Below are positions 10,515-30,310 of a stretch of DNA of 36,463 nt, piece by piece. The stretch is from a virus (taxonomy: Duplodnaviria > Caudoviricetes): the IMG/VR virus record IMGVR_UViG_3300028633_000022, positions 1-36,463 of that record; one strand, given 5' to 3'. Position 1 is the first letter of the stretch; every line of letters starts with the position of its first letter. The notes beneath the pieces were generated by a model. The model saw nothing but the letters and a program-made list of their open reading frames with translations, did not search any database and was not told the origin of the DNA. The translations under genes and the position numbers were made by a program.

Positions 10515-10646
10515 ATGGACCGCAAGATCATGATCAATGAGATTGTAGCTGCTAAGGATGAAATGTTTGTTAGTGATCCTAAAGGCAATCCCTATTGGAG
10601 AAGCTTCACATCAAAACCATGGAGGAATACAGGGTTTGGAGTCTGA
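10515..10646 (+). CDS. 43-aa ORF behind C4-like RNA (not in ORF track)
   Basis: AAAGGGG upstream; MDRKIMINEIVAAKDEMF..., TGA 10644-10646. Confidence 0.45.
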   Translation: MDRKIMINEIVAAKDEMFVSDPKGNPYWRSFTSKPWRNTGFGV

Positions 10647-10747
10647 ATGAGGAAGAGCGGAATCGGTCCGCATCCATTCTCAAGAACCAAGGCCCGGACA
10701 CCCTGCTGGCAGTTCAAGCTGGCATTTTACCAGAAGAGGAGAAGAAA

Positions 10748-11323
10748 ATGGCTAAGGACAAGAAGAAGAAGGAAAAAGCTCCAGAAGTTCCCAAATTTGC
10801 TGCTGATGACCGCAGTGCCTTTGAAGCTTTGGCAGTTGCCTGCTGGGAGGAGGATGACCGACCAGACATCTCTGAGATGACAGATGACCAGGTGTCTCAG
10901 GAACTGAAAGAAAGTCTGGGTCTTCTGGCTCCGGAGGACAAGGAAACCATTCTGGCCCTGGAAAATGGGAAGGCCAACTGGGCCTACCTGGAAGATCTCA
11001 TGAAGGACCAGGCTGAGGAGAAAGCGGAAGTCAAGGAGAAGGAAAAAGCCCCCAAGGAGAAGAAGCCCCCCAAGGAGAAGAAAGAAAAGGTCCCAGCAAT
11101 TCCCAAATATACCCGCAGTGAAGCTTTTGCTGACGCCCTCCGCAAGTCCCCTACCTCTGTGAAGGAACTCATCACCAGCTCTGATAAGCTCTATGCTTCT
11201 CAAGGGGGCAAGTCCAACGAGAAGGAAGCCCAGACGATTTGCCGGTTCATACTTCCGGCTCTGGAAGCTCTGGGGGTAGTGACTCTGTCCGGGACTGATA
11301 TCGCCATCAACATCAAACTCTAA
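10748..11323 (+). CDS. K/E-rich putative DNA-binding protein
   Basis: GAGGAG RBS before ATG 10748; frame open from TTG 10595; KEKK/P linker and helical C-terminal domain. Confidence 0.7.
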   Translation: MAKDKKKKEKAPEVPKFAADDRSAFEALAVACWEEDDRPDISEMTDDQVSQELKESLGLLAPEDKETILALENGKANWAYLEDLMKDQAEEKAEVKEKEKAPKEKKPPKEKKEKVPAIPKYTRSEAFADALRKSPTSVKELITSSDKLYASQGGKSNEKEAQTICRFILPALEALGVVTLSGTDIAINIKL

Positions 11324-11404: not shown

Positions 11405-12265
11405 ATGCCGTATGCCCAATGCTACTCCTACGACCTCAATGAGCTTAGGAAAAAAGCATCCCAAAGCAGTATCTGGGAAGGATTCCCGGATTGCTCAGGC
11501 AAAGCCGTGTTTATCAAACCAAACCTCGTCACTCCCCCCAACCGATTCGATTACCAATCATGCACTCACGTTAACTTAGTCCGAATAGTTGCAGAAATGG
11601 CGCTGGAAGGTGGTGCGGATAAGGTGGTGATAGGAGAGTGTGGGTTTAAGAATCAATGGCAGAAAACCATGGAATTCTGCTCCTACCAGGACCTTTTATC
11701 CCTAAGTCCTAAGATCGAGATTATACCCCTACAGGATGGCCCTAACTTCCACAAATTTTCCCTAGTGAGACTTACCAAAGGGGAGTACCTCAGCCTGTAC
11801 GGCGTGAAGTTCTCCGATTACCTTCTGGAATGCGATCTGGTAATTAATATCCCTAAACTGAAAATGCACTCCATGGCCTTTATTACCGGTGCCATTAAGA
11901 ACATGATGGGCACTATGGCCCAAAAGGGTAGTATGCACCCTAAAGCAGATCCCTCTATACTCCATAAAAGGTTAAGGGACTTTTACCTATTGATACAGCC
12001 AAGGATTAAATTTTGTTTAATGGACGGGATAATAGGTGCAGAATACTGCGAGCAGTATGGAGTACCTGTACAATCCAATTTACTGATATCAGAAACAGAT
12101 TGCTGGAAGTTGGATTGTATGGCTGCTTCTGCTATGTCAGTAAAGCCATCAGAAGTTCCCTACCTGAGCTTGATAAAGAGGTTCAAGATGGAAGAATGGC
12201 CAGAGTTGATTCCTTTAGAACTTCGTAAGCCTTATGAAAGACCATTGGGTTGGAGAAAAGATTGA
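11405..12265 (+). CDS. DUF362-family (Fe-S associated) protein
   Basis: VFIKPNLV, VVIGE, VINIPKLKMH, TGAIKNMMG, MDGIIG, LD..AA. Confidence 0.85.
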   Translation: MPYAQCYSYDLNELRKKASQSSIWEGFPDCSGKAVFIKPNLVTPPNRFDYQSCTHVNLVRIVAEMALEGGADKVVIGECGFKNQWQKTMEFCSYQDLLSLSPKIEIIPLQDGPNFHKFSLVRLTKGEYLSLYGVKFSDYLLECDLVINIPKLKMHSMAFITGAIKNMMGTMAQKGSMHPKADPSILHKRLRDFYLLIQPRIKFCLMDGIIGAEYCEQYGVPVQSNLLISETDCWKLDCMAASAMSVKPSEVPYLSLIKRFKMEEWPELIPLELRKPYERPLGWRKD

Positions 12266-13479
12266 AAAGGGATATATCCAAATCTAAATTTTCATCCATA
12301 GTGGGATGGAGAGGGGATAGCCTAGTGTGTCCTCAGGCCTTTGGTGGGGATATTTACGCTGGCTGTTCTATGGATTGTTGGTGGTGCTTCTGTCGGGAGA
12401 TGGAAGAAGAGCTGTACAATAAATACTACTCAGGATGGAGCCGGAACCTAGTGAGACCTTGTGATCCAGAAGATTACCGAAGGCTGTTTGATAAGGCTTT
12501 TGGTAGTGATAAGGATTACCGGGATTGGTTTGTATCCTGCCTGAGGCAAGGACTACCTTTTAACATGGGTAGTAAGGCGGAAACCTTCTGCCGGGAGGAT
12601 GTGGACTTAGGTGTAGACAGTGTAGTGGTAAAGGTGCTGAAAATATTCCTAGAGTACCAAGTGCCCATAATATTTCAAACCAAATCCCACTATGTTGGCC
12701 TATCCCGCTACTTGGATATTATCAAGGAACTCAATTGTGCTGTAGTGGTAAGCGTAATGGGCGGAACAGATACCCTAAACTATGAACTGGAGCCAGGATC
12801 TCCCTGTGCTTCTGCCCGTTGGTACTTAGTGAAAGAATTATTGAAAAGAAAGATCTGGACAGCAGTTAGATGGGAGCCCATAATGCCCGGCATTAACTCC
12901 TCCCGAGAAGTCCTGGAATCCTATGCTGAGCAGGTAAGTAAATCAGGAGCCCGCCATGTGTCCTGGTACAACTACCGAACATCCAATGCCCGCCGGGCTC
13001 AAGTAGAGTTCGAGTCCAGGGGGTATAATTACATAAAGATGTTAGAAAAGAATCTTGATTCAGAGTGGAAACCTGTAGGGGATATTTTCCTAGAGGCTCT
13101 GTCCTCCAGAGGAGTTCGGCAATCCACCCCAGACTTTGTGAATTTTCCTTTTTCCAATAGCTGTCAGAGCTGCTGCGGGGTGGATGGTCTCTTTACCCCT
13201 TATGAATTTACTTTCCAGCATGCTTGCCGCCTCATATTGGATAAGGGATTTGTTAATTGGGAGGATATGGAAAGTATATCCTTCAAAGAACCCAAAGCCT
13301 ATGAAAGAATGAAGGCCATATGGAATGGAGGAAGAAAAGATTACTATTCCTTGGCCGATAGTCCTGGGGTAGTGATTCTGGATAAGGATAAAAAGGGATT
13401 CAACGTGTACGGCAAATCGGATGCTATACCCTCTGGAATGAAAAAGAAAAAGATAGGCTTTGGTTTGAATCTTAAATAA
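12262..13479 (+). CDS. radical SAM protein 1 (spore photoproduct lyase-like)
   Basis: DIYAGCSMDCWWC (CxxxCxxC), QTKS, LEPGSP...R, VRWEPIMPG, C-terminal SCCG; TTGA overlap with DUF362 stop. Confidence 0.87.
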   Translation: MKRDISKSKFSSIVGWRGDSLVCPQAFGGDIYAGCSMDCWWCFCREMEEELYNKYYSGWSRNLVRPCDPEDYRRLFDKAFGSDKDYRDWFVSCLRQGLPFNMGSKAETFCREDVDLGVDSVVVKVLKIFLEYQVPIIFQTKSHYVGLSRYLDIIKELNCAVVVSVMGGTDTLNYELEPGSPCASARWYLVKELLKRKIWTAVRWEPIMPGINSSREVLESYAEQVSKSGARHVSWYNYRTSNARRAQVEFESRGYNYIKMLEKNLDSEWKPVGDIFLEALSSRGVRQSTPDFVNFPFSNSCQSCCGVDGLFTPYEFTFQHACRLILDKGFVNWEDMESISFKEPKAYERMKAIWNGGRKDYYSLADSPGVVILDKDKKGFNVYGKSDAIPSGMKKKKIGFGLNLK

Positions 13480-13490
13480 GGATAGATACC

Positions 13491-14876
13491 TTGGATTATT
13501 ATGAAATCCGATCCAGAGCTTCCAAGTTGATTCCCAGGTGGAATCAGTTTTTACCCAATGAGGAGAAGAAAGGAGCAGTTAAAGAGAAAGGCCGGAAGAG
13601 CAATTATCATCAGTTCCACTTGGAAAGAGGTAAGTGGGAGAAGAGGGAGCGTCTTCTCAACACTGAAGAGATCAATAGCTTTCTGGAAATTTCTCTTCGA
13701 GCTCAGGCCTGTCCCATGCCTCTCAACCTCGATACGTGGGATGGTCTTCTCTGCCCGTTTTTGTGTAAGTATTGCTATGCAGATGCCTTCCGAGCGTCTT
13801 TGTACACTTCCTTCTTTGATAACAGCAAATCCGTGGGATTACGCCACTGTAACCCCGACTTCTACCGAAGGGAACTAGACAAACTCTTCAAGCTCCGTGG
13901 AACCGATGTTCATCAGCTCCAAGGAGTCCGAAAAGCAGTGGCCATGGAAATCCCCATCCGGTTTGGGATAAGGTTTGAAGACTTTCATGGGGTGGAAGGA
14001 AAACGGGGCATTTCCCTGGCCATGCTCCAATACCTATCTGAAAATGCTTATCCTATCATGATCAATACGAAGTCTGGATTAGTAGGCAGGGAGGATTATG
14101 TACGAGCACTAGCGAGCAATCCTGCTGGGTCAGCTGTGCACATTACGATGATAAGCAGTCAGGAAGATCTTCTTAAGAGGATAGAACCAGGGGCACCCCC
14201 ATTCTCCCAGAGACTGGAAGCAGCAAAGAACCTAGCAGATGGAGGGGTTCGGGTGGTGGCCCGAATAGAACCATTCTTGGTATTCCAAACCGATCATCCA
14301 GATGATGTGGAAGAATACTGTGAGAAAACCTGGGAAGCAGGTATTCGCCACATCACCTTTGACACTTACAGCTACAGCGCTTCCAATCCAGGAATAAGAA
14401 ACAACTTCATCAAATTGGGAATAGACTATGACCGGATGTTCCTCCTGGGTTGCGATAGCCAAGGGGTGGGTTCTCTCCTCCTGGAATCCTTCATGAAGAT
14501 ATTTCGGGCAAAGGGATTTAGCTGTTCTACCTTTGACTTGGGATGTGTTCCTAATAATGACCAAGCCATCTGTTGTGAAGTAGGAGATTGGTTTAAAGGA
14601 GGATTCAATTGGGGTAGTATTGTGGGAGCTATTCGTCTCATAAGGGATAGAGGGTTGACCCCAACCAGTTGGGTTGACTTTGAGAATTGGGTGGAAGAAA
14701 GAGGAGGATTTCTCACCCCTCAACTAAAATTAAGTGTCCATGAACTCTGGAATGTCCAGGGGAATGATGCCTATTCAGTAGTTTGGGGACAAGGAATAGT
14801 TCCTGCTGGATGGAATGACAGTGGAATAATCTGGCAATATCGAGAAGGAGAAGACTTCAGAAAGGACATGGTATGA
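13491..14876 (+). CDS. radical SAM protein 2 (spore photoproduct lyase-like)
   Basis: CPFLCKYCYA, NTKS, IEPGAP...RL, ARIEPF, C-terminal ICCE; TTG start with AAGGA upstream. Confidence 0.87.
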   Translation: MDYYEIRSRASKLIPRWNQFLPNEEKKGAVKEKGRKSNYHQFHLERGKWEKRERLLNTEEINSFLEISLRAQACPMPLNLDTWDGLLCPFLCKYCYADAFRASLYTSFFDNSKSVGLRHCNPDFYRRELDKLFKLRGTDVHQLQGVRKAVAMEIPIRFGIRFEDFHGVEGKRGISLAMLQYLSENAYPIMINTKSGLVGREDYVRALASNPAGSAVHITMISSQEDLLKRIEPGAPPFSQRLEAAKNLADGGVRVVARIEPFLVFQTDHPDDVEEYCEKTWEAGIRHITFDTYSYSASNPGIRNNFIKLGIDYDRMFLLGCDSQGVGSLLLESFMKIFRAKGFSCSTFDLGCVPNNDQAICCEVGDWFKGGFNWGSIVGAIRLIRDRGLTPTSWVDFENWVEERGGFLTPQLKLSVHELWNVQGNDAYSVVWGQGIVPAGWNDSGIIWQYREGEDFRKDMV

Positions 14877-15703
14877 AAATTGCTAGCACAGGAATACAAG
14901 CCTTTGCTCATGCTGCAGCTCTAGACAAGGATGGGCGTCTGAGTAACACTATTTATTGTGAAGGTAAAGACATCTTCATCCTCAACCAGGACAACTCAGT
15001 ACTCATCCGGTTTCAATTCTCTAACCAGGAATTTGAGCACTCTGTTTGCTTTCGAGCAGAAGACTATGATAGCAATGAGCTATATGAAAAGGAAGGGAAG
15101 ATAGTCTTCGTCCAGAAGAGTGAAGAATGGGTTAGAGAAAAATCCTGTAGAACTCCCGGAAGAACTCCTGGGGAGGTTCGCCAGCTTTGGAAATCTCTTC
15201 GTTTTCCACGAGGACCAAAAATTCATCTCTCCTCCTCCATTCTTCCTCTCTTGGACTCTTCTCTCAGTCATATTGAGTTTTCTGTAAAGAAAGGCAAGTT
15301 TCAACTTTGCCAGAAAAACATCTACACTGGAGTTTCTTCTCAAATGGAAAAGGCAAAGTCCTCCATGATGGGAAGTGGGGATGAACTGGGGGATAAGGAG
15401 TATGGTCCTATTGGGATGAGAACTGGGGACTTTATGGCTCTGTTCAGCTTCTGTGAAGCTTTGGAAATCACCTTTCCCAAAGATCCCATGGAAGGTTACT
15501 TTTATGTAAATGGTCCCAAAGTGGCGGGATTGCCCAGTAATCTTCAAGCTTTTGTTTGTATGTGTATTTATGATGAATTAGGGGATATTCAGTACTTGCT
15601 CAAACAGGAGGATTCCAATGGGCGGGAAGAGCAGAAAGAGCGGAGGAGTGAGCCGGGAGTTGATCGAAAGGTTAAAACGAGGACCAAAAGCCGAAACCAA
15701 TAA
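14873..15703 (+). CDS. hypothetical protein (possibly clamp-like fold)
   Basis: 276-aa ORF coupled to rSAM2 by ATGA; fold suggestion is weak. Confidence 0.7.
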   Translation: MKIASTGIQAFAHAAALDKDGRLSNTIYCEGKDIFILNQDNSVLIRFQFSNQEFEHSVCFRAEDYDSNELYEKEGKIVFVQKSEEWVREKSCRTPGRTPGEVRQLWKSLRFPRGPKIHLSSSILPLLDSSLSHIEFSVKKGKFQLCQKNIYTGVSSQMEKAKSSMMGSGDELGDKEYGPIGMRTGDFMALFSFCEALEITFPKDPMEGYFYVNGPKVAGLPSNLQAFVCMCIYDELGDIQYLLKQEDSNGREEQKERRSEPGVDRKVKTRTKSRNQ

Positions 15704-15767
15704 ATGCAGATCTTCCAAGAAGAAAGAGGAGGAACCCAAAGGTGGATTCTTTAGTAAAAAGCAATAG
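15618..15767 (+). CDS. 49-aa basic protein (not in ORF track)
   Basis: AGGAGG RBS before ATG 15618; MGGKSRKSGG...PKGGFFSKKQ, TAG 15765-15767. Confidence 0.6.
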   Translation: MGGKSRKSGGVSRELIERLKRGPKAETNKCRSSKKKEEEPKGGFFSKKQ

Positions 15768-16521
15768 TCCCACGTCCTATCTACTGAAGATGGAATGGTT
15801 CAAGCTTCGGCCTACTTTTTGGACCTCAGAAGCTTATCTGACTTGTGTTCCTGGTCTGACTTCCTTCCGCTTCAAGGGTAGCAATTGGCTGGAGGATGAG
15901 GAAGGAGTATGCTTATTTCCTCCCATAACTGACCGAGGAACATATGACCTATCAGTCCAATCCTGGGCAATTCCTTCAGATCAATTACGAGAAGATTTCT
16001 CCTTTTTGGATTGGGAGTATATTTACCACTCAGAGAACTTCCTGGACCTGTCTGGGAGTAAGTGGGAAGTATTCCGGAAAAACTCTCGCAAATGGATAAA
16101 ATCTCATCCTCATTGGACATACTACTCTTTGAAGGACTGGGGGAAGTCTCTTGAGTCCTTACTTATCAAATGGTTGGAAAACAAGATAGAGGAAAAGATT
16201 CATGATGGGGAAGTCATGCTCAATTACCTCTCCCAGGGAAATGGGCAGATATTTGGGTTGTGGGAAAAGGATAGATTGGTAGGATTCAACTGTTGGGATC
16301 TCAACTATCGTTGGGTGAACTTCCGTTACAGTTTTGCTGATCCTGGAGAACCTTGGTTGTCTGAGTTTCTCCGGCTCCTATTTTATCAATCTCAGTCTTA
16401 CCTGGAAGTTAATGATGGAGGTATTCTGGACAATCCCAATCTGGAACGGTTCAAGGACAAACTCCATCCTGTAGAAAAGAACAAGGTTCACTCTTCTGTA
16501 GGAAAAGACTATGCTAATTGA
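15742..16521 (+). CDS. DUF2156/phosphatidylglycerol lysyltransferase-like GNAT-fold protein
   Basis: EYIY...LDLSGSKWEVFRKN and EVNDGG.LDNPNLERFKDKLHPV resemble DUF2156 motifs (DYIY..L..L.G.K....RN; IN..D.G..GLR..K....P). Confidence 0.65.
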   Translation: MDSLVKSNSPTSYLLKMEWFKLRPTFWTSEAYLTCVPGLTSFRFKGSNWLEDEEGVCLFPPITDRGTYDLSVQSWAIPSDQLREDFSFLDWEYIYHSENFLDLSGSKWEVFRKNSRKWIKSHPHWTYYSLKDWGKSLESLLIKWLENKIEEKIHDGEVMLNYLSQGNGQIFGLWEKDRLVGFNCWDLNYRWVNFRYSFADPGEPWLSEFLRLLFYQSQSYLEVNDGGILDNPNLERFKDKLHPVEKNKVHSSVGKDYAN

Positions 16522-16753
16522 ACCTGATGAACTTGAAGATTGGTGGGAGAAGCACTGGAAAGATATGCCTGAATTTTCTCAAGAGGACCAGTCGCCAGTT
16601 CAGTCTATACTTGTTCATTTCTACACTAAGGAAGATGTTCAAGATTTTGCCAAACTGGTTCAACAAAGGATAACTACAAGGACTAGGTTTATCAGGTTTC
16701 CCAATTCAGAAAATGCCAAGTTAAAAGAGATGGGATGGTTTGATGAATCCTAA
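16511..16753 (+). CDS. small protein of the type found beside phage TAGT glycosyltransferases
   Basis: W..MPEF.QED...ILVHF...EDVQDFAKLV.Q.IT pattern; overlaps GT start. Confidence 0.7.
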   Translation: MLIEPDELEDWWEKHWKDMPEFSQEDQSPVQSILVHFYTKEDVQDFAKLVQQRITTRTRFIRFPNSENAKLKEMGWFDES

Positions 16754-17573
16754 ATATCCAGTGTACATTATCTCTAAAGGCCGATGGAAGTCCAGGTTGA
16801 CTAGCAAAAGTCTGGAGCGTATGAATGTTCCATATAGAATTGTAGTGGAACCCCAGGAATGGAAAGAATATGCTAGGGTTATCCACCGCAACAAGATCCT
16901 GACCCTACCATTTAGCAATCTTGGTCAAGGTTCTATCCCTGCTAGAAACTGGGTCTGGGATCATTCTATACAAGAAGGGCATAAAAAGCACTGGATACTG
17001 GATGATAACATAGGTTGTTTCTACCGGTTAAACCATAATCTAAAATATAGGGTTTGGTCTGGAACCATTTTCCGGGTGGCTGAGATCTTCACTGATCGTT
17101 ACAGTAATGTAGCAATCTCAGGGTTTAACTAGGAATTGCTAATCCCCAGAAAAAGAAAAAATCCTCCTTTCTACTTAAACACAAGGGTGTACTCCAATCT
17201 CTTAATCCGTAATGATCTACCATATAGGTGGAGAGGTCGGTACAATGAAGACACAGATCTTTGCTTACGAGCATTAAAAGGAGGATGGTGTACCATCTTG
17301 TTCAACGCTTTCCTGGCAGATAAAATAGCTACCATGTCCATGAAAGGAGGTAATACAGATGAGCTATACAAGGATGATGGCCGGCTGAAAATGGCTCAGT
17401 CCCTAGTAGACCAACACCCAGATGTAGCAAGGGTTTCATTTAAGTGGGGAAGACCCCAACACCATGTAGATTATTCCAAGTTCAAGAAGAACAAACTCAA
17501 GCTCAAACCAGGATTGGAAATACCAGAAGGAATCAATGAATATGGATTGGTTCTGAGAAGAGTGGAGGTGTAA
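16743..17573 (+). CDS. TET/JBP-associated (TAGT/GREB1-like) glycosyltransferase with in-frame TAG at 17130-17132
   Basis: PVYIISKGR and HWILDDNI in first ORF, RYNEDTDL and KGGNT in second; both in one frame. Confidence 0.8.
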
Positions 17574-17574
17574 G

Positions 17575-17955
17575 ATGTTTTCGAGGGAGAATGCAGACAA
17601 CAATGAGATCAGAAAAGTTCTCAAAGAAAAGTATCCTGACCTCATTTATGTCTCCAGAAAATCTATCAATGCTGACTGTTATGTGATGAATTCCAATGGA
17701 CTTATCCTTCACCAGAAGGCTAAAGCCTTCGAGATTTTGGAATTGCTTACCGCTCCTAGAATCAACTTCTACACTCCCACAGTAAAATCTTCAGGTCCAG
17801 GAGGTGATGTTCCAGTTTCTATTGAGAACCAGATAGAATATTGGAAGATTCAGAAGGACAAGTTGTTACAACAAAGGACCAAAGCTTATCCAGATTGGAA
17901 GAGAAGGTTGAAAGAAATGGAAACCACTATCAAAGAACTGAGGAGAGAAATATGA
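17575..17955 (+). CDS. hypothetical protein
   Basis: 126-aa ORF, GGAGGT RBS. Confidence 0.7.
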   Translation: MFSRENADNNEIRKVLKEKYPDLIYVSRKSINADCYVMNSNGLILHQKAKAFEILELLTAPRINFYTPTVKSSGPGGDVPVSIENQIEYWKIQKDKLLQQRTKAYPDWKRRLKEMETTIKELRREI

Positions 17956-18949: not shown

Positions 18950-19210
18950 ATGATCTTATACCCAAGGAAAAAGAAATTCAAATGTAAAGTCTGCGGAGAG
19001 CCCATCCACTGTGAGAATGCTACGCATGACAGTTGTAAGGAGGATGGATTGGATTCCGGCGGCCGAAGGCGAATAAACATATACCTCGACCGAGCTTACA
19101 AGGAGATAAAGGAAGGACTTTCTAGCAAGGTGAAAACAAAAACCTGGTCCAAGAAAGATGGGAAAGACAAGCTTCGAGAACTGTTCCCAGATATGGTGGA
19201 TAGACTATGA
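18950..19210 (+). CDS. small Zn-finger hypothetical protein
   Basis: CKVCG...H..C; GGAG RBS. Confidence 0.6.
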   Translation: MILYPRKKKFKCKVCGEPIHCENATHDSCKEDGLDSGGRRRINIYLDRAYKEIKEGLSSKVKTKTWSKKDGKDKLRELFPDMVDRL

Positions 19211-20565
19211 ATAATGGATTCTTCAAAAACTCTCATGATCCAGCTTTGTCCTCCCGCATTAAGTTAACAGGATGTTCCAGCTGTGGCCTATCCTCGGGTT
19301 GCCTTCATCCAAAGATGGAACCCACTGGACAAGGACAAAAGAAGATCCTTTTTGTGGCTGAAGGACCTGGAGAGGATGAAGATAGACTGGGGACCCAACT
19401 CATAGGGAGAGTGGGGCAAAGGCTCAGAAGAACAATACAGGAAATGGGATTTGATCTGGACAAAGATTGTAGAAAGACCAATGCTGTACGATGCCGCCCT
19501 CCTGAGAATAGGTCCCCAACAGGCCTGGAAATATCCCAATGTAGAAATCACATATTTGAGGAGATAGAGAAATCCAAACCCCAGGTGATAATTCTCCTTG
19601 GGGGATCGGCTGTTCTCTCGCTATTGGGAGATAGATGGAAGGGAAATTCAGACTTCACCGTTAGTAGATGGAGAGGATTGACCATACCTGATCATGAATT
19701 AGAAGCCTGGGTTTGTCCCACCTTTCATCCCAGCTATGTGGAGAGAAGTGACCACTATGCCCCAGCCGTGGATGTTATATGGAAAAGGGATCTCAAGAGA
19801 GCATTGAACTTATGCGGAACTCCTCTCCCTGAGAAGCCTGACCCTGAGATCAGAATGTTAAAGGGAAAGCAAATAGAGGAGTATTTGCTTGGATTGTGGA
19901 GAAGAGGAAAGTCAACAGATATGGTAAAAACCAAGTTTCCCTTTGCTGGTCTTACTCCAGGGACGGAAGAGTGGATGATCTATTGGAAGAACAACCGAAA
20001 GCAGCAGAGAAATATGCTAATGTACCAAAGAAATCCAGTACTGTTGATTTCCCCATCTCCTCTGACCATAGCCTTTGACTATGAGACCACTGGATTAAAA
20101 CCTTATCGGGAAGACCATAAAATACTATGTTGCTCTATAGCTGAAAGTCCTGACCTGGTAAATGTATGGATGTGGAGCAAGGGTTCCATACCAATGTTCA
20201 ATGAGGTGATGAAATTAGGAACCATAATGAAGATTGCTGGTAATATCAAGTTCGAGCACATATGGACACGCCAGATATGTAGATCAGAGATTCAGGGATG
20301 GTGGTGGGATACAGTAGTGGCCGGTAAAACCTTAGATCACCGGCCAGGGAATAGCAATGTGAAGTTCCAAGCATACAGTCGTCTGGGGATCATAGATTAT
20401 GGCAGTCGAATCCAGCCCTTCATATCCTCTACAGATGGTACTAGCAATGGATTCAACCGTCTCCAGGAGATTCCATCCAGAGAGTTAATGGAGTATTGCG
20501 CAATGGATTCTGCTCTGGAATATGGGATAGCTCTGGACCAAAGGAAGGAGATGGGATATGCCTAA
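19207..20565 (+). CDS. family 4 uracil-DNA glycosylase-like domain fused to 3'-5' exonuclease (N-terminal part of split DNA polymerase)
   Basis: CSSC, EGPGEDED, NAVRCRPP.NR.P, FHPSY (UDG); FDYETTGL, NIKFE, YCAMD (Exo I-III). Confidence 0.88.
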   Translation: MNNGFFKNSHDPALSSRIKLTGCSSCGLSSGCLHPKMEPTGQGQKKILFVAEGPGEDEDRLGTQLIGRVGQRLRRTIQEMGFDLDKDCRKTNAVRCRPPENRSPTGLEISQCRNHIFEEIEKSKPQVIILLGGSAVLSLLGDRWKGNSDFTVSRWRGLTIPDHELEAWVCPTFHPSYVERSDHYAPAVDVIWKRDLKRALNLCGTPLPEKPDPEIRMLKGKQIEEYLLGLWRRGKSTDMVKTKFPFAGLTPGTEEWMIYWKNNRKQQRNMLMYQRNPVLLISPSPLTIAFDYETTGLKPYREDHKILCCSIAESPDLVNVWMWSKGSIPMFNEVMKLGTIMKIAGNIKFEHIWTRQICRSEIQGWWWDTVVAGKTLDHRPGNSNVKFQAYSRLGIIDYGSRIQPFISSTDGTSNGFNRLQEIPSRELMEYCAMDSALEYGIALDQRKEMGYA

Positions 20566-21967
20566 AATATGGGCTGCAACCAAAGAGGCATATCAACTAT
20601 TCCATGATGGGTCCCTGGCTCTGGCTGAAGCAGAATTCAATGGAATAAGATGTGATCAAAACTACTGCCGCCGTATGATCTCCAACATTGAGAGACAGGT
20701 CAAATCCCTGACTTCTCAACTGGACTCCACTGAGATAGGAAAAATCTGGAGAACCAGATTCGGCTCCCAGATGTCTTATTCCAGCGATACCCAGCTCCGA
20801 AAGATCCTTATAGAAGATCTGAATTTCAAGTCCAACAAGAAGACTGCCAAGGGCAACATATCGGTGGATAAGCAGGTTCTGGAATCTGTGGACAGGGAGG
20901 ATGTTCGGCTCCTAATGAAAAAGAGAAACCTAGAGAAGATGTCTGGAACCTACCTGAAGAACATTTTGGAAGAATCCTTAGCAGATGGATACATCCACCC
21001 CTTCTTCCATCTCTCTGAGTTTAGTGACTCAAAGGCTGGAGGAGCCAGAAGCTTCCGTGGCAGTAGTTCTGATCCAAACTTTCAGAACCAGCCAAATAGG
21101 CATGAGGATGACAGGAAGCTTATCCGAAGAGCCTTCCTTCCCAGGCCGGGCCATAGGATTGTCGGGAGGGATTATGGGGCTATGGAGTTCAGAATCTCAG
21201 CTTGTCTTCACCAAGATCCAAACATGATAAGGTACATTGAGAATGGAGATGATCCCCATCGAGATGTAGCTTCCCACTGCTTCCTACTTGATCCAGATCT
21301 TTGTACAAAGAAATGCGGGGAGTATGGAAAGAATATCCGGCATGTAGGAAAGAACAGTGTGACCTTTGCCCAGATGTACTTCCAGGAGCCTGAGAACACT
21401 GCTGAGGGAATATGGAAAGCCATAAAAGATATGGACCTCAGAGTTCCAAATGATCCAGAGAAAAAGCTCATTTCCCACCTCAAGGATAAGAAAATTGGAA
21501 CCTTTGACTCTTTCAATAATCATATTGTAAGCAAGGTCATCCCTTGGTTCTGGAATGAGATGTTCCCAGAGTATGGTAGATGGAGAATAAAGTGGTTGGA
21601 AGACTATAACAAGAAAGGATACTTCGATATGATAACTGGGTTCAGAGTGGAGGGGGTCCTATCGAAGTACCAGCTGGGGAATTATCCAATCCAAGGGCCA
21701 GCTTTCCATTGTCTTCTATGGTCCATGATTCAAGTCCATAAGCTTTGGAAGGAGAAGAAAGCTAATAGCAAGCTAATTGGACAGATCCATGATGAATTAA
21801 CCACAGATGAACCTGGGGAAGAGTTTGAGGAGAACCAGAAGATAATACCCAGAATAATGTCAGAGGACATAAGAAAATCTTGGCCTTGGATAGTTGTACC
21901 ACTTTCTGTTGAATCCTCAGCAACTCCTGTGAATGGTAACTGGTACGAAAAGAAGGATATTTCCTAA
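20558..21967 (+). CDS. polA: family A DNA polymerase, polymerase domain
   Basis: SSSDPNFQNQP, motif A DYGAMEFR, motif B RHVGK....F...Y, NYPIQG, motif C QIHDEL; own AAGGAG RBS. Confidence 0.92.
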   Translation: MPKIWAATKEAYQLFHDGSLALAEAEFNGIRCDQNYCRRMISNIERQVKSLTSQLDSTEIGKIWRTRFGSQMSYSSDTQLRKILIEDLNFKSNKKTAKGNISVDKQVLESVDREDVRLLMKKRNLEKMSGTYLKNILEESLADGYIHPFFHLSEFSDSKAGGARSFRGSSSDPNFQNQPNRHEDDRKLIRRAFLPRPGHRIVGRDYGAMEFRISACLHQDPNMIRYIENGDDPHRDVASHCFLLDPDLCTKKCGEYGKNIRHVGKNSVTFAQMYFQEPENTAEGIWKAIKDMDLRVPNDPEKKLISHLKDKKIGTFDSFNNHIVSKVIPWFWNEMFPEYGRWRIKWLEDYNKKGYFDMITGFRVEGVLSKYQLGNYPIQGPAFHCLLWSMIQVHKLWKEKKANSKLIGQIHDELTTDEPGEEFEENQKIIPRIMSEDIRKSWPWIVVPLSVESSATPVNGNWYEKKDIS

Positions 21968-29569: not shown

Positions 29570-30310
29570 GTGGACACCACAATCATAATTCCAGCAAGAT
29601 ATGGCAGCAGCAGGTTCCCAGGTAAGCCGATGGCCAAGATACTGGGCAAGCCGATGATTGAATGGGTTTGGCGGGCAGCTATGGCCACAAAGGACAGAAG
29701 CAGAAGAGTGAAGTCAGTCATAGTGGCCACAGACTCAGAGGAAATACACCGATTCTGCACGTTTCTCGGAGCTTGGACAGAGCTGACAGATTTAAGGCAC
29801 TCTAACGGGACCAGCAGGTGTCTTGAGGTGTGCGACAGGCTAGGGCTAAAGGGAGGGGTGATGATACTCCAAGGGGATGAACCACTGGCCAGCCCAGAGC
29901 TTCTTTGCAGTATACTGAAAAGAATGTCGCATATGAATCCAGATCCCAGCCCGGTAACAGCCTGCTGTAAATTCAGCAGTCCACAGGAGATGAAAGATCC
30001 CAATGCGGTGAAGGTAGTATTAGGACATGACTGGAAAAGTCTTTACTTCTCCCGCACCTATCTCGAAGGGAGTTTTCGCCACATCGGCATCTATCTGTAT
30101 GATGTATGGGCTCTCAAGATGCTATCGGAAATAAAGCCCGGACCGCTGGAAGTTTGCGAGGGACTCGAACAGCTCAGAGTGCTGGAGTACGGGTGGAAAT
30201 TTAGGGTGGTAGAATGGACTTGTGAACCAAGGACTATTTCTGTGGATGTTCCCGAGGACATTCCGAGGGTGGAAGAGGAATTCAGAAGATTTACATCTGC
30301 TCAGATTTAA
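29570..30310 (+). CDS. kdsB: 3-deoxy-manno-octulosonate cytidylyltransferase (CMP-Kdo synthetase)
   Basis: IIPARYGSSRFPGKP, VATD, NGTSR, QGDEP, LYFSR, HIGIY, EGLEQLR, VDVPED. Confidence 0.92.
   Translation: MDTTIIIPARYGSSRFPGKPMAKILGKPMIEWVWRAAMATKDRSRRVKSVIVATDSEEIHRFCTFLGAWTELTDLRHSNGTSRCLEVCDRLGLKGGVMILQGDEPLASPELLCSILKRMSHMNPDPSPVTACCKFSSPQEMKDPNAVKVVLGHDWKSLYFSRTYLEGSFRHIGIYLYDVWALKMLSEIKPGPLEVCEGLEQLRVLEYGWKFRVVEWTCEPRTISVDVPEDIPRVEEEFRRFTSAQI

Follow-up and report, generated by a model that had tools for sequence, protein, structure and literature searches.

A radical SAM gene module with a predicted second sliding clamp in a sludge phage and its probable role in oxygen-independent DNA base modification

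A close described parallel to the genes treated here is the 5-NedU pathway of Pseudomonas phage M6, in which gp51 (ADDT), gp52 (a pyridoxal phosphate (PLP) decarboxylase), gp53 (a radical S-adenosylmethionine (SAM) isomerase) and gp54 (a kinase) take part, gp53 isomerising N-glycinylthymidine in DNA before gp52 decarboxylates it; in PMC8989533, the amino-acid hypermodification routes begin with hydroxymethyluracil nucleotides. We analysed a 36,463-base stretch of DNA (hereafter the window), the viral record IMGVR_UViG_3300028633_000022, which is a fragment of a tailed phage and holds about half of the phage genome. Between dnaB and the clamp gene, the window carries two radical SAM genes (rSAM1 and rSAM2), a DUF362 gene, a DUF2156-like gene and a gene for a TAGT-family glycosyltransferase. 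We conclude that this module is probably a not yet described form of amino-acid-type DNA hypermodification, with a putative entry step of its own. With a probability of roughly 60%, it performs an O2-independent, post-replicative, amino-acid-type base modification, in which the DUF362 protein and the rSAM1 subtype of the window (rSAM1B) form an exchangeable finishing unit, likely making a hydroxyl acceptor. Gene content, linkage, the pattern of exchange and, within the scope given below, the absences are observations; the folds and the contact between DUF362 and rSAM1B are predictions. We infer that DNA is the substrate, that the amino acid comes from tRNA, that the base is thymine and that the product carries a hydroxyl group.

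The genes from DUF362 to TAGT, which the original prediction had read as one tightly coupled run, all lie on the + strand, overlapping or almost abutting, between dnaB and the clamp gene. All of them are present as described, with two corrections: the TAGT gene, taken to be intact, is split, and the 276-aa protein, taken to be of unknown kind, has a predicted PCNA-type clamp fold. The interval holds two further genes, at 10595-11323 and 17575-17955.

10595..11323, +: 242-aa protein, charged, encoded upstream of DUF362 and constant in its place within the operon
11405..12265, +: DUF362 protein (Pfam 2e-33), N-terminal fold predicted to be that of LarA (lactate racemase), paired exchangeably with rSAM1B
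12250..13479, +: rSAM1 subtype B, radical SAM protein like spore photoproduct lyase (SPL), C39/C43/C46, Radical_SAM E 0.006, travels with DUF362
13491..14876, +: rSAM2, conserved core radical SAM protein, C88/C92/C95, Radical_SAM E 3e-8, 553 homologs
14873..15703, +: 276-aa predicted second sliding clamp (PCNA fold), C-terminal tail overlapping the peptide gene
15618..15767, +: basic peptide of 49 aa, GGKSRK near its N-terminus invariant
15742..16521, +: DUF2156/LPG_synthase_C-like protein, predicted aminoacyl-tRNA-dependent transferase
16511..16753, +: 80-aa small TAGT partner, accessory, elsewhere fused to TAGT or a ParB-like domain
16740..17573, +: TAGT-family glycosyltransferase, accessory, PF20691 on both halves, in-frame stop at 17130-17132

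A scan with an rSAM2 alignment gave 165 loci, made up of the 80 best among 178 viral matches, the 80 best among 203 metagenomic matches and five in contigs of metagenome-assembled genomes (MAGs), and including duplicates and the window's own contig; a viral scan with a single sequence returned no matches, whereas alignment-based scans did. Together with the window (166 loci), 85 loci span DnaB to the clamp, and dereplication at less than 90% rSAM2 identity left 53. Both rSAMs, the 276-aa protein and the DUF2156-like protein were found in 53/53 loci, in the case of rSAM2 by construction because it was the search seed, and a peptide starting with MGGKSRK was found in 52. The tight linkage proposed from the window is thus far beyond chance for these core genes. 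The position upstream of DUF362 is also recurrent, as a family related to the 10595-11323 protein (cluster c5) occupies it in 102 of the 166 loci; the window copy resembles its counterparts in DUF362 loci over the C-terminal part only.

The CxxxCxxC motif expected of radical SAM enzymes is invariant in rSAM1 and rSAM2 across the 53 loci, and the two proteins are paralogs (HH 99.8%). Neither window protein belongs to the SPL, Rv2578c or PA0069 equivalogs, against which they score 20-48 bits with cut-offs of 360-430. The rSAM1 family profile matches M6 gp53 (HH 97.7%, E 1.5e-12), as does the window rSAM1 alone (22% over 158 aa, E 2e-7), and the match between rSAM2 and gp53 is weak (HH 65%). Sequence searches of the PDB with rSAM2, the 276-aa protein and DUF362 returned no matches. 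Some relatives have, after the DUF2156 gene, one more SPL-like radical SAM gene, their third, which encodes about 505-520 aa (L111:8688-10211, L110:11754-13268 and L063:12175-13737), and intein-type insertions were seen in the rSAM2 of some relatives (L183:12207-14054, P0017/P0030).

The 276-aa protein gave no sequence match, and its predicted structure (AlphaFold2 (AF2), predicted local distance difference test (pLDDT) 85) displays a two-domain PCNA fold, the best Foldseek matches being PCNA (E 2e-9, template modelling score (TM) about 0.47-0.5, root-mean-square deviation (rmsd) 6). We count this predicted second clamp in favour of a role on DNA, although the phage also encodes a beta-type clamp. 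A C-terminal G-hydrophobic-hydrophobic motif, present in 23/52 peptides, 18/53 rSAM1s and 6/13 methyltransferases vs 31/714 background ORFs, may be a docking element on the predicted second clamp; DUF362 is without it. In the DUF2156-like family, 30 of the 67 aligned members match PF09924 (best E 2e-7) and the profile matches PDB 2HQY (E 3e-4); the window protein itself has no Pfam match.

No gene for TET/JBP, ADDT or the thymidylate-synthase family turned up in nine near-complete relatives. A TET/JBP enzyme was found in 0/26 relatives, many of them fragments, in a search that gave no control match, and in 0/4 DUF362 records in a search that detected the P12024L positive control. ADDT (PF18724) was absent from 26 relatives with the M6 control detected, and HMUDK_hel from 21 relatives, with M6 gp55 detected as the control and the gp54 P-loop kinase itself not searched genome-wide. 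The thymidylate-synthase family, which would include a dUMP hydroxymethylase, was absent from the window and from all nine near-complete records (those at least 90% complete), the M6 control being detected; overall it occurred in two of the 26 records, one 87%-complete provirus (1/25 viral) and one MAG. Likewise, when 146 ORFs selected from four long relatives (65/106, 37/70, 26/85 and 18/80) were scanned with Pfam, none of these entry enzymes was found. The original prediction had allowed for a TET/JBP enzyme or hydroxymethylase elsewhere in the genome as the explanation of the glycosyltransferase; neither was found in the near-complete relatives, and about half of the phage's own genome was covered.

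The finishing enzymes vary from locus to locus. Among the 53 loci, a PLP enzyme occurs in 28, a methyltransferase-like protein in 13, an aldo-keto reductase (AKR) in nine, DUF362 in seven, TAGT in four and a flavin adenine dinucleotide (FAD) oxidoreductase in three, and the PLP enzyme was never found together with AKR (0/9) or DUF362 (0/7). This PLP enzyme, whose gene is absent from the window, is 34% identical to M6 gp52 over 96% of its length (E 6e-34). DUF362 coincides with rSAM1B (7/7 vs 0/46 loci), and neither was found with the PLP enzyme. A DUF362-seeded scan gave 12 viral loci, overlapping the rSAM2-seeded set, of which 12 carried rSAM1B and none the PLP enzyme. The rSAM1B proteins are at least 60% identical to the window copy and about 22% to other rSAM1s, and form a single clade (support 100). 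When the DUF362 loci were placed on gene trees (a quick tree for rSAM2; FastTree for rSAM1, clamp, 276-aa protein, DnaB and DUF2156), 6-7 changes were required on the rSAM2, clamp, 276-aa, DnaB and DUF2156 trees, of which 4-6 are forced by strong branches, and one on the rSAM1 tree; accessory type as a whole needs 10 changes on the rSAM1 tree vs 18-20 on the others. DUF362 loci being scattered on the backbone trees and united in one rSAM1 clade, the pair most likely moved as a unit and displaced rSAM1A together with the PLP enzyme.

Structural predictions are consistent with a physical partnership. The AF2 model of DUF362 (pLDDT 80.5) matches LarA-family chains (Foldseek E 9e-7; VIA Z 16.7, rmsd 3.2, 223 aligned), which agrees with the placement in Pfam clan CL0471 (PMC11770544). 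H155, K153 and K165 are kept in 123/123 other DUF362 proteins, and H155/K165 align weakly with the His/Lys motif of the LarA H174/K184 type (HH E 0.0015, probability 17%). DUF362 is predicted to bind rSAM1B: the modelled complex scores 0.65, a mark attained by 116/157 solved complexes and 2/215 mismatched pairs, and the best control reached 0.00. Contacts agreed between runs at 87% or more, with partner pLDDT of at least 83, and the rSAM1B side of the interface is modestly B-specific (11/19 vs 136/393, p 0.045).

We propose the following order of events for these genes. The predicted second clamp would carry the enzymes along DNA, and aminoacyl-tRNA would supply an amino acid to the DUF2156 protein, with the peptide as a possible intermediary. 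A radical formed on an unmodified base, most likely at the thymine methyl, would then be coupled to the amino acid by rSAM2, so that the rSAM2/DUF2156 entry would replace the hydroxymethyluracil/kinase/ADDT entry of M6, and rSAM1 would rearrange the adduct as gp53 does in M6. Finishing would take place at the alpha carbon, by the gp52-like PLP decarboxylase in most relatives and by AKR, with an FAD oxidase or a methyltransferase, in others; in the window, DUF362 bound to rSAM1B would finish it, likely giving a hydroxy acid or alcohol. Whether the compound is an amino, a keto or a hydroxy acid, its alpha carbon is where PLP decarboxylases, the combination of FAD oxidase and reductase, and LarA-like folds all work, and this shared chemistry fits one common adduct with differing finishes. 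A glycosyltransferase might optionally cap the resulting hydroxyl, which could be the window TAGT where it is intact, unless that enzyme is unrelated cargo. The fullest form of the scheme, with a clamp-guided rSAM enzyme functionalising unmodified thymine with tRNA-borne amino acids, DUF362–rSAM1B making a hydroxylated base and glycosyltransferases sugar-coating it, appears possible but doubtful to us.

The TAGT gene itself is interrupted by an in-frame TAG at 17130-17132, which leaves halves of 130 aa and 145 aa covering profile positions 1-132 and 140-205. The stop appears to be a population allele: among the sequencing runs containing the phage, it is present in X2, X6 and X9, as well as in locus L081, and replaced by a sense codon in X14, X16 and X17, with the caveat that the 2019 runs may be one campaign, that X2 may be the source and that X13 and X19 have no reads bridging the site. 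Recoding of TAG was rejected, as TAG terminates five other + strand ORFs and near-identical populations have the sense codon, and an assembly error is unlikely with the stop in three runs and a second contig. TAGT is dispensable, because the window copy is broken, and it was also rejected as a core step, being found in 4/53 loci; among 63 loci of a TAGT-seeded scan, rSAM1 matched only L187 and L188, which are one lineage. TAGT and its small partner (present in 51 of the 63 loci, with ParB-like N-terminal fusions seen) constitute a roaming cassette of their own, many copies lying beside terminase or portal genes. This TAGT subfamily (L187-L249) is widespread; its partner is small or fused to ParB, and most copies lie beside terminase. 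No TET was found in 48 TAGT-carrying records, which comprise 46 of these 63 loci together with Aeh1 and a Vibrio phage. Its occurrence mostly without rSAM, near terminase and without TET argues for cargo. In addition, 29570-30310 encodes KdsB, a CMP-KDO synthetase that scores above its NCBIfam subfamily cut-off; this suggests that the phage has a glycan pathway, perhaps one that glycosylates virions, and offers a possible alternative context for TAGT. Among the relatives, L253-L254, L260 and L266 carry large glycan-modification clusters (glycosyltransferases, sulfotransferases, transketolase and methyltransferases) away from the module.

On the other side, L054, L145 and L160 have a GT2-like gene between DUF362 and rSAM1B (3/7 DUF362 loci vs 0/46 others), as do L177 and L181; it was identified by Atlas features (0.98), TM about 0.7 and, for one member, Pfam E 0.006. 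L183 has a nucleoside diphosphate (NDP)-sugar dehydratase between its two rSAM genes. By post hoc tests, glycosyltransferases (GT2 or TAGT) inside the dnaB-clamp interval are enriched in DUF362 loci (4/7 vs 2/46, p 0.0016) and, as both non-DUF362 cases are of the AKR type, in DUF362/AKR loci (6/16 vs 0/37, p 0.0003); L060 and L062 have TAGT outside the interval. The excess in DUF362 loci makes a branch that produces a sugar acceptor plausible. We give about even odds to the window TAGT being an optional finishing enzyme or unrelated cargo.

The original prediction of anaerobic DNA modification, with the rSAM pair and DUF362 activating a base and the glycosyltransferase and/or the DUF2156-like enzyme decorating it, therefore survives in part. 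The core found in 53/53 loci, the relation of rSAM1 to gp53, the gp52 homolog as usual partner and the absence of TET/JBP from 26 relatives support the anaerobic rSAM route. DUF362, strictly tied to the rSAM1 subtype of the window, is not a core member of one module with the rSAM pair (7/53), and TAGT, neither core nor intact in this population, keeps a plausible decorating role only through the enrichment of glycosyltransferases in DUF362 loci.

Several points weigh against the amino-acid-type modification proposed above. Only about half of the phage genome is covered by the window, and among the DUF362 records a single one reaches 90% completeness. The rSAM1 proteins resemble gp53 only distantly (about 20%), the match of rSAM2 is weak, and the rSAM searches gave no match among 50,697 phage records and no cultured carrier. 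The target base is a guess from analogy. According to PMC8913301, the hydroxyls acylated by known DUF2156 enzymes are those of lipids or sterols, and the substrates of these enzymes are not predictable. Only 4-5 DUF362/rSAM1B pairs are tree-independent on strong branches, all concordant, in an underpowered test (p 0.06-0.125); adjacent genes are also co-transferred through mere linkage; and phage-specific residues show no excess on the DUF362 side of the predicted interface (4/17 vs 42/280, p 0.30). The excess of glycosyltransferases is small and was tested post hoc, and L162, a PLP-type locus without dnaB and outside the 53, has TAGT at the position seen in the window. CG and many palindromes are still depleted (several 6-bp palindromes are absent from the window), as under persisting restriction pressure.

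A further difficulty is that GGKSRK is invariant in 52/52 peptides while the remainder is variable, so that the peptide may be the substrate: the transferase and rSAMs would tailor it as in RiPPs (peptides that are made on ribosomes and modified afterwards) or histone tails, and the clamp would merely localise the product. rSAM enzymes and tRNA-dependent transferases commonly target peptides. We nevertheless regard this as unlikely, as the closest characterised relatives of rSAM1 and its PLP partner work on DNA-bound amino acids, and the replication-operon position and the second clamp point to DNA. Alternatively, a modified nucleotide might be made before replication and incorporated by the phage polymerase. 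The module adjoins the polymerase genes, small molecules are the usual substrates of AKR and LarA folds, and some relatives carry dCMP deaminase, dATP/dGTP diphosphohydrolase-like, QueE-like rSAM or TGT-like genes. Across the loci, however, neither a nucleotide kinase nor a dNTPase is conserved, the polymerase swaps between PolA and PolC, and gp52 and gp53 work on DNA, which makes this account quite improbable.

Clamp-guided DNA repair, in which SPL-like enzymes remove lesions and the remaining genes are bystanders, would explain the automatic name 'DNA repair photolyase', the SPL-like family matches and the pyrimidine-dimer glycosylase close to the module in L004, L076 and L079. M6 gp53 bears the same automatic name, yet is a modification enzyme, and repair leaves unexplained the transferase in 53/53 loci, the peptide and the mutually exclusive PLP/AKR/DUF362 partners; we consider it very unlikely. 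Amino-acid-type modification of DNA thus remains our preferred reading, and the 20 sequencing runs containing the phage, all from sludge, digester and bioreactor metagenomes, count in its favour as sludge or anaerobic-digester habitats.

Besides the module, the window encodes a helicase, primase, DnaC, DnaB, beta-type clamp, split PolA, clamp loader, RecA and tail genes, and an identical rSAM2 is present on a separate 69,132-base contig; a tRNA gene search found none. PolA (19207-21967) is split into a gene for a uracil-DNA glycosylase (UDG)-like/3'-5' exonuclease and a polymerase gene, and some relatives have instead a PolC with a UDG-like domain. A pentapeptide-repeat protein at 1681-2673 is possibly a DNA mimic. 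CG is strongly depleted across the window (observed/expected 0.43) and at 0.61-0.72 in five relatives.

Our literature search found no account of such a module, although its novelty may be affected by the metagenomic gene clusters in the supplements of PMC8989533. If the proposed modification is genuine, a widespread phage clade of sludge and similar habitats would have a third entry route besides the hydroxymethyluracil-based one and the TET/JBP one, which requires O2, and from its plug-in finishing enzymes one would expect several different bases. Through its strict pairing with rSAM1B, the large, unstudied DUF362 family (5,894 clusters) gains a concrete partner and a direct assay. Should the base be hydroxylated and sugar-coated, we would have an anaerobic counterpart of TET/JBP-plus-glycosyltransferase chemistry and the first function for DUF362, and the natural open and stop alleles of TAGT offer a ready-made comparison.

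The locus can be compared with several known systems. DUF362 is predicted to share the N-terminal fold of the LarA superfamily (Z 16.7), with a weak His/Lys alignment, and differs in lacking the LarA C-terminal domain, with no genes for the NPN (nickel-pincer nucleotide) cofactor seen in the loci. The PF20691 glycosyltransferase recalls TET/JBP-TAGT systems such as gp26-gp27 of Nonlabens phage P12024L, whereas this TAGT subfamily is without TET (0/48), has a small or ParB-fused partner, lies mostly near terminase and is broken in the window. Weak family membership, including the basic-helix region, connects the DUF2156 protein to the aminoacyl-tRNA transferases of MprF (C-terminal domain) and fungal ErgS, as they are described in PMC8913301; unlike these, it is free-standing within a replication operon. 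The SPL-like core and tandem arrangement resemble SPL, Rv2578c, PA0069 and the radical SAM mobile pair (TIGR04470), and the context differs. There is also a likeness to the 5-NedU genes of M6, with which the loci share a gp53-related SPL-like rSAM, a gp52 homolog in 28/53 relatives and exchangeable finishing enzymes including FAD oxidoreductases. In contrast to M6, near-complete relatives lack ADDT, HMUDK_hel and the hydroxymethylase, and the module comprises two rSAMs, a predicted second clamp, the peptide and the DUF2156 protein, with DUF362 here in place of the PLP enzyme.

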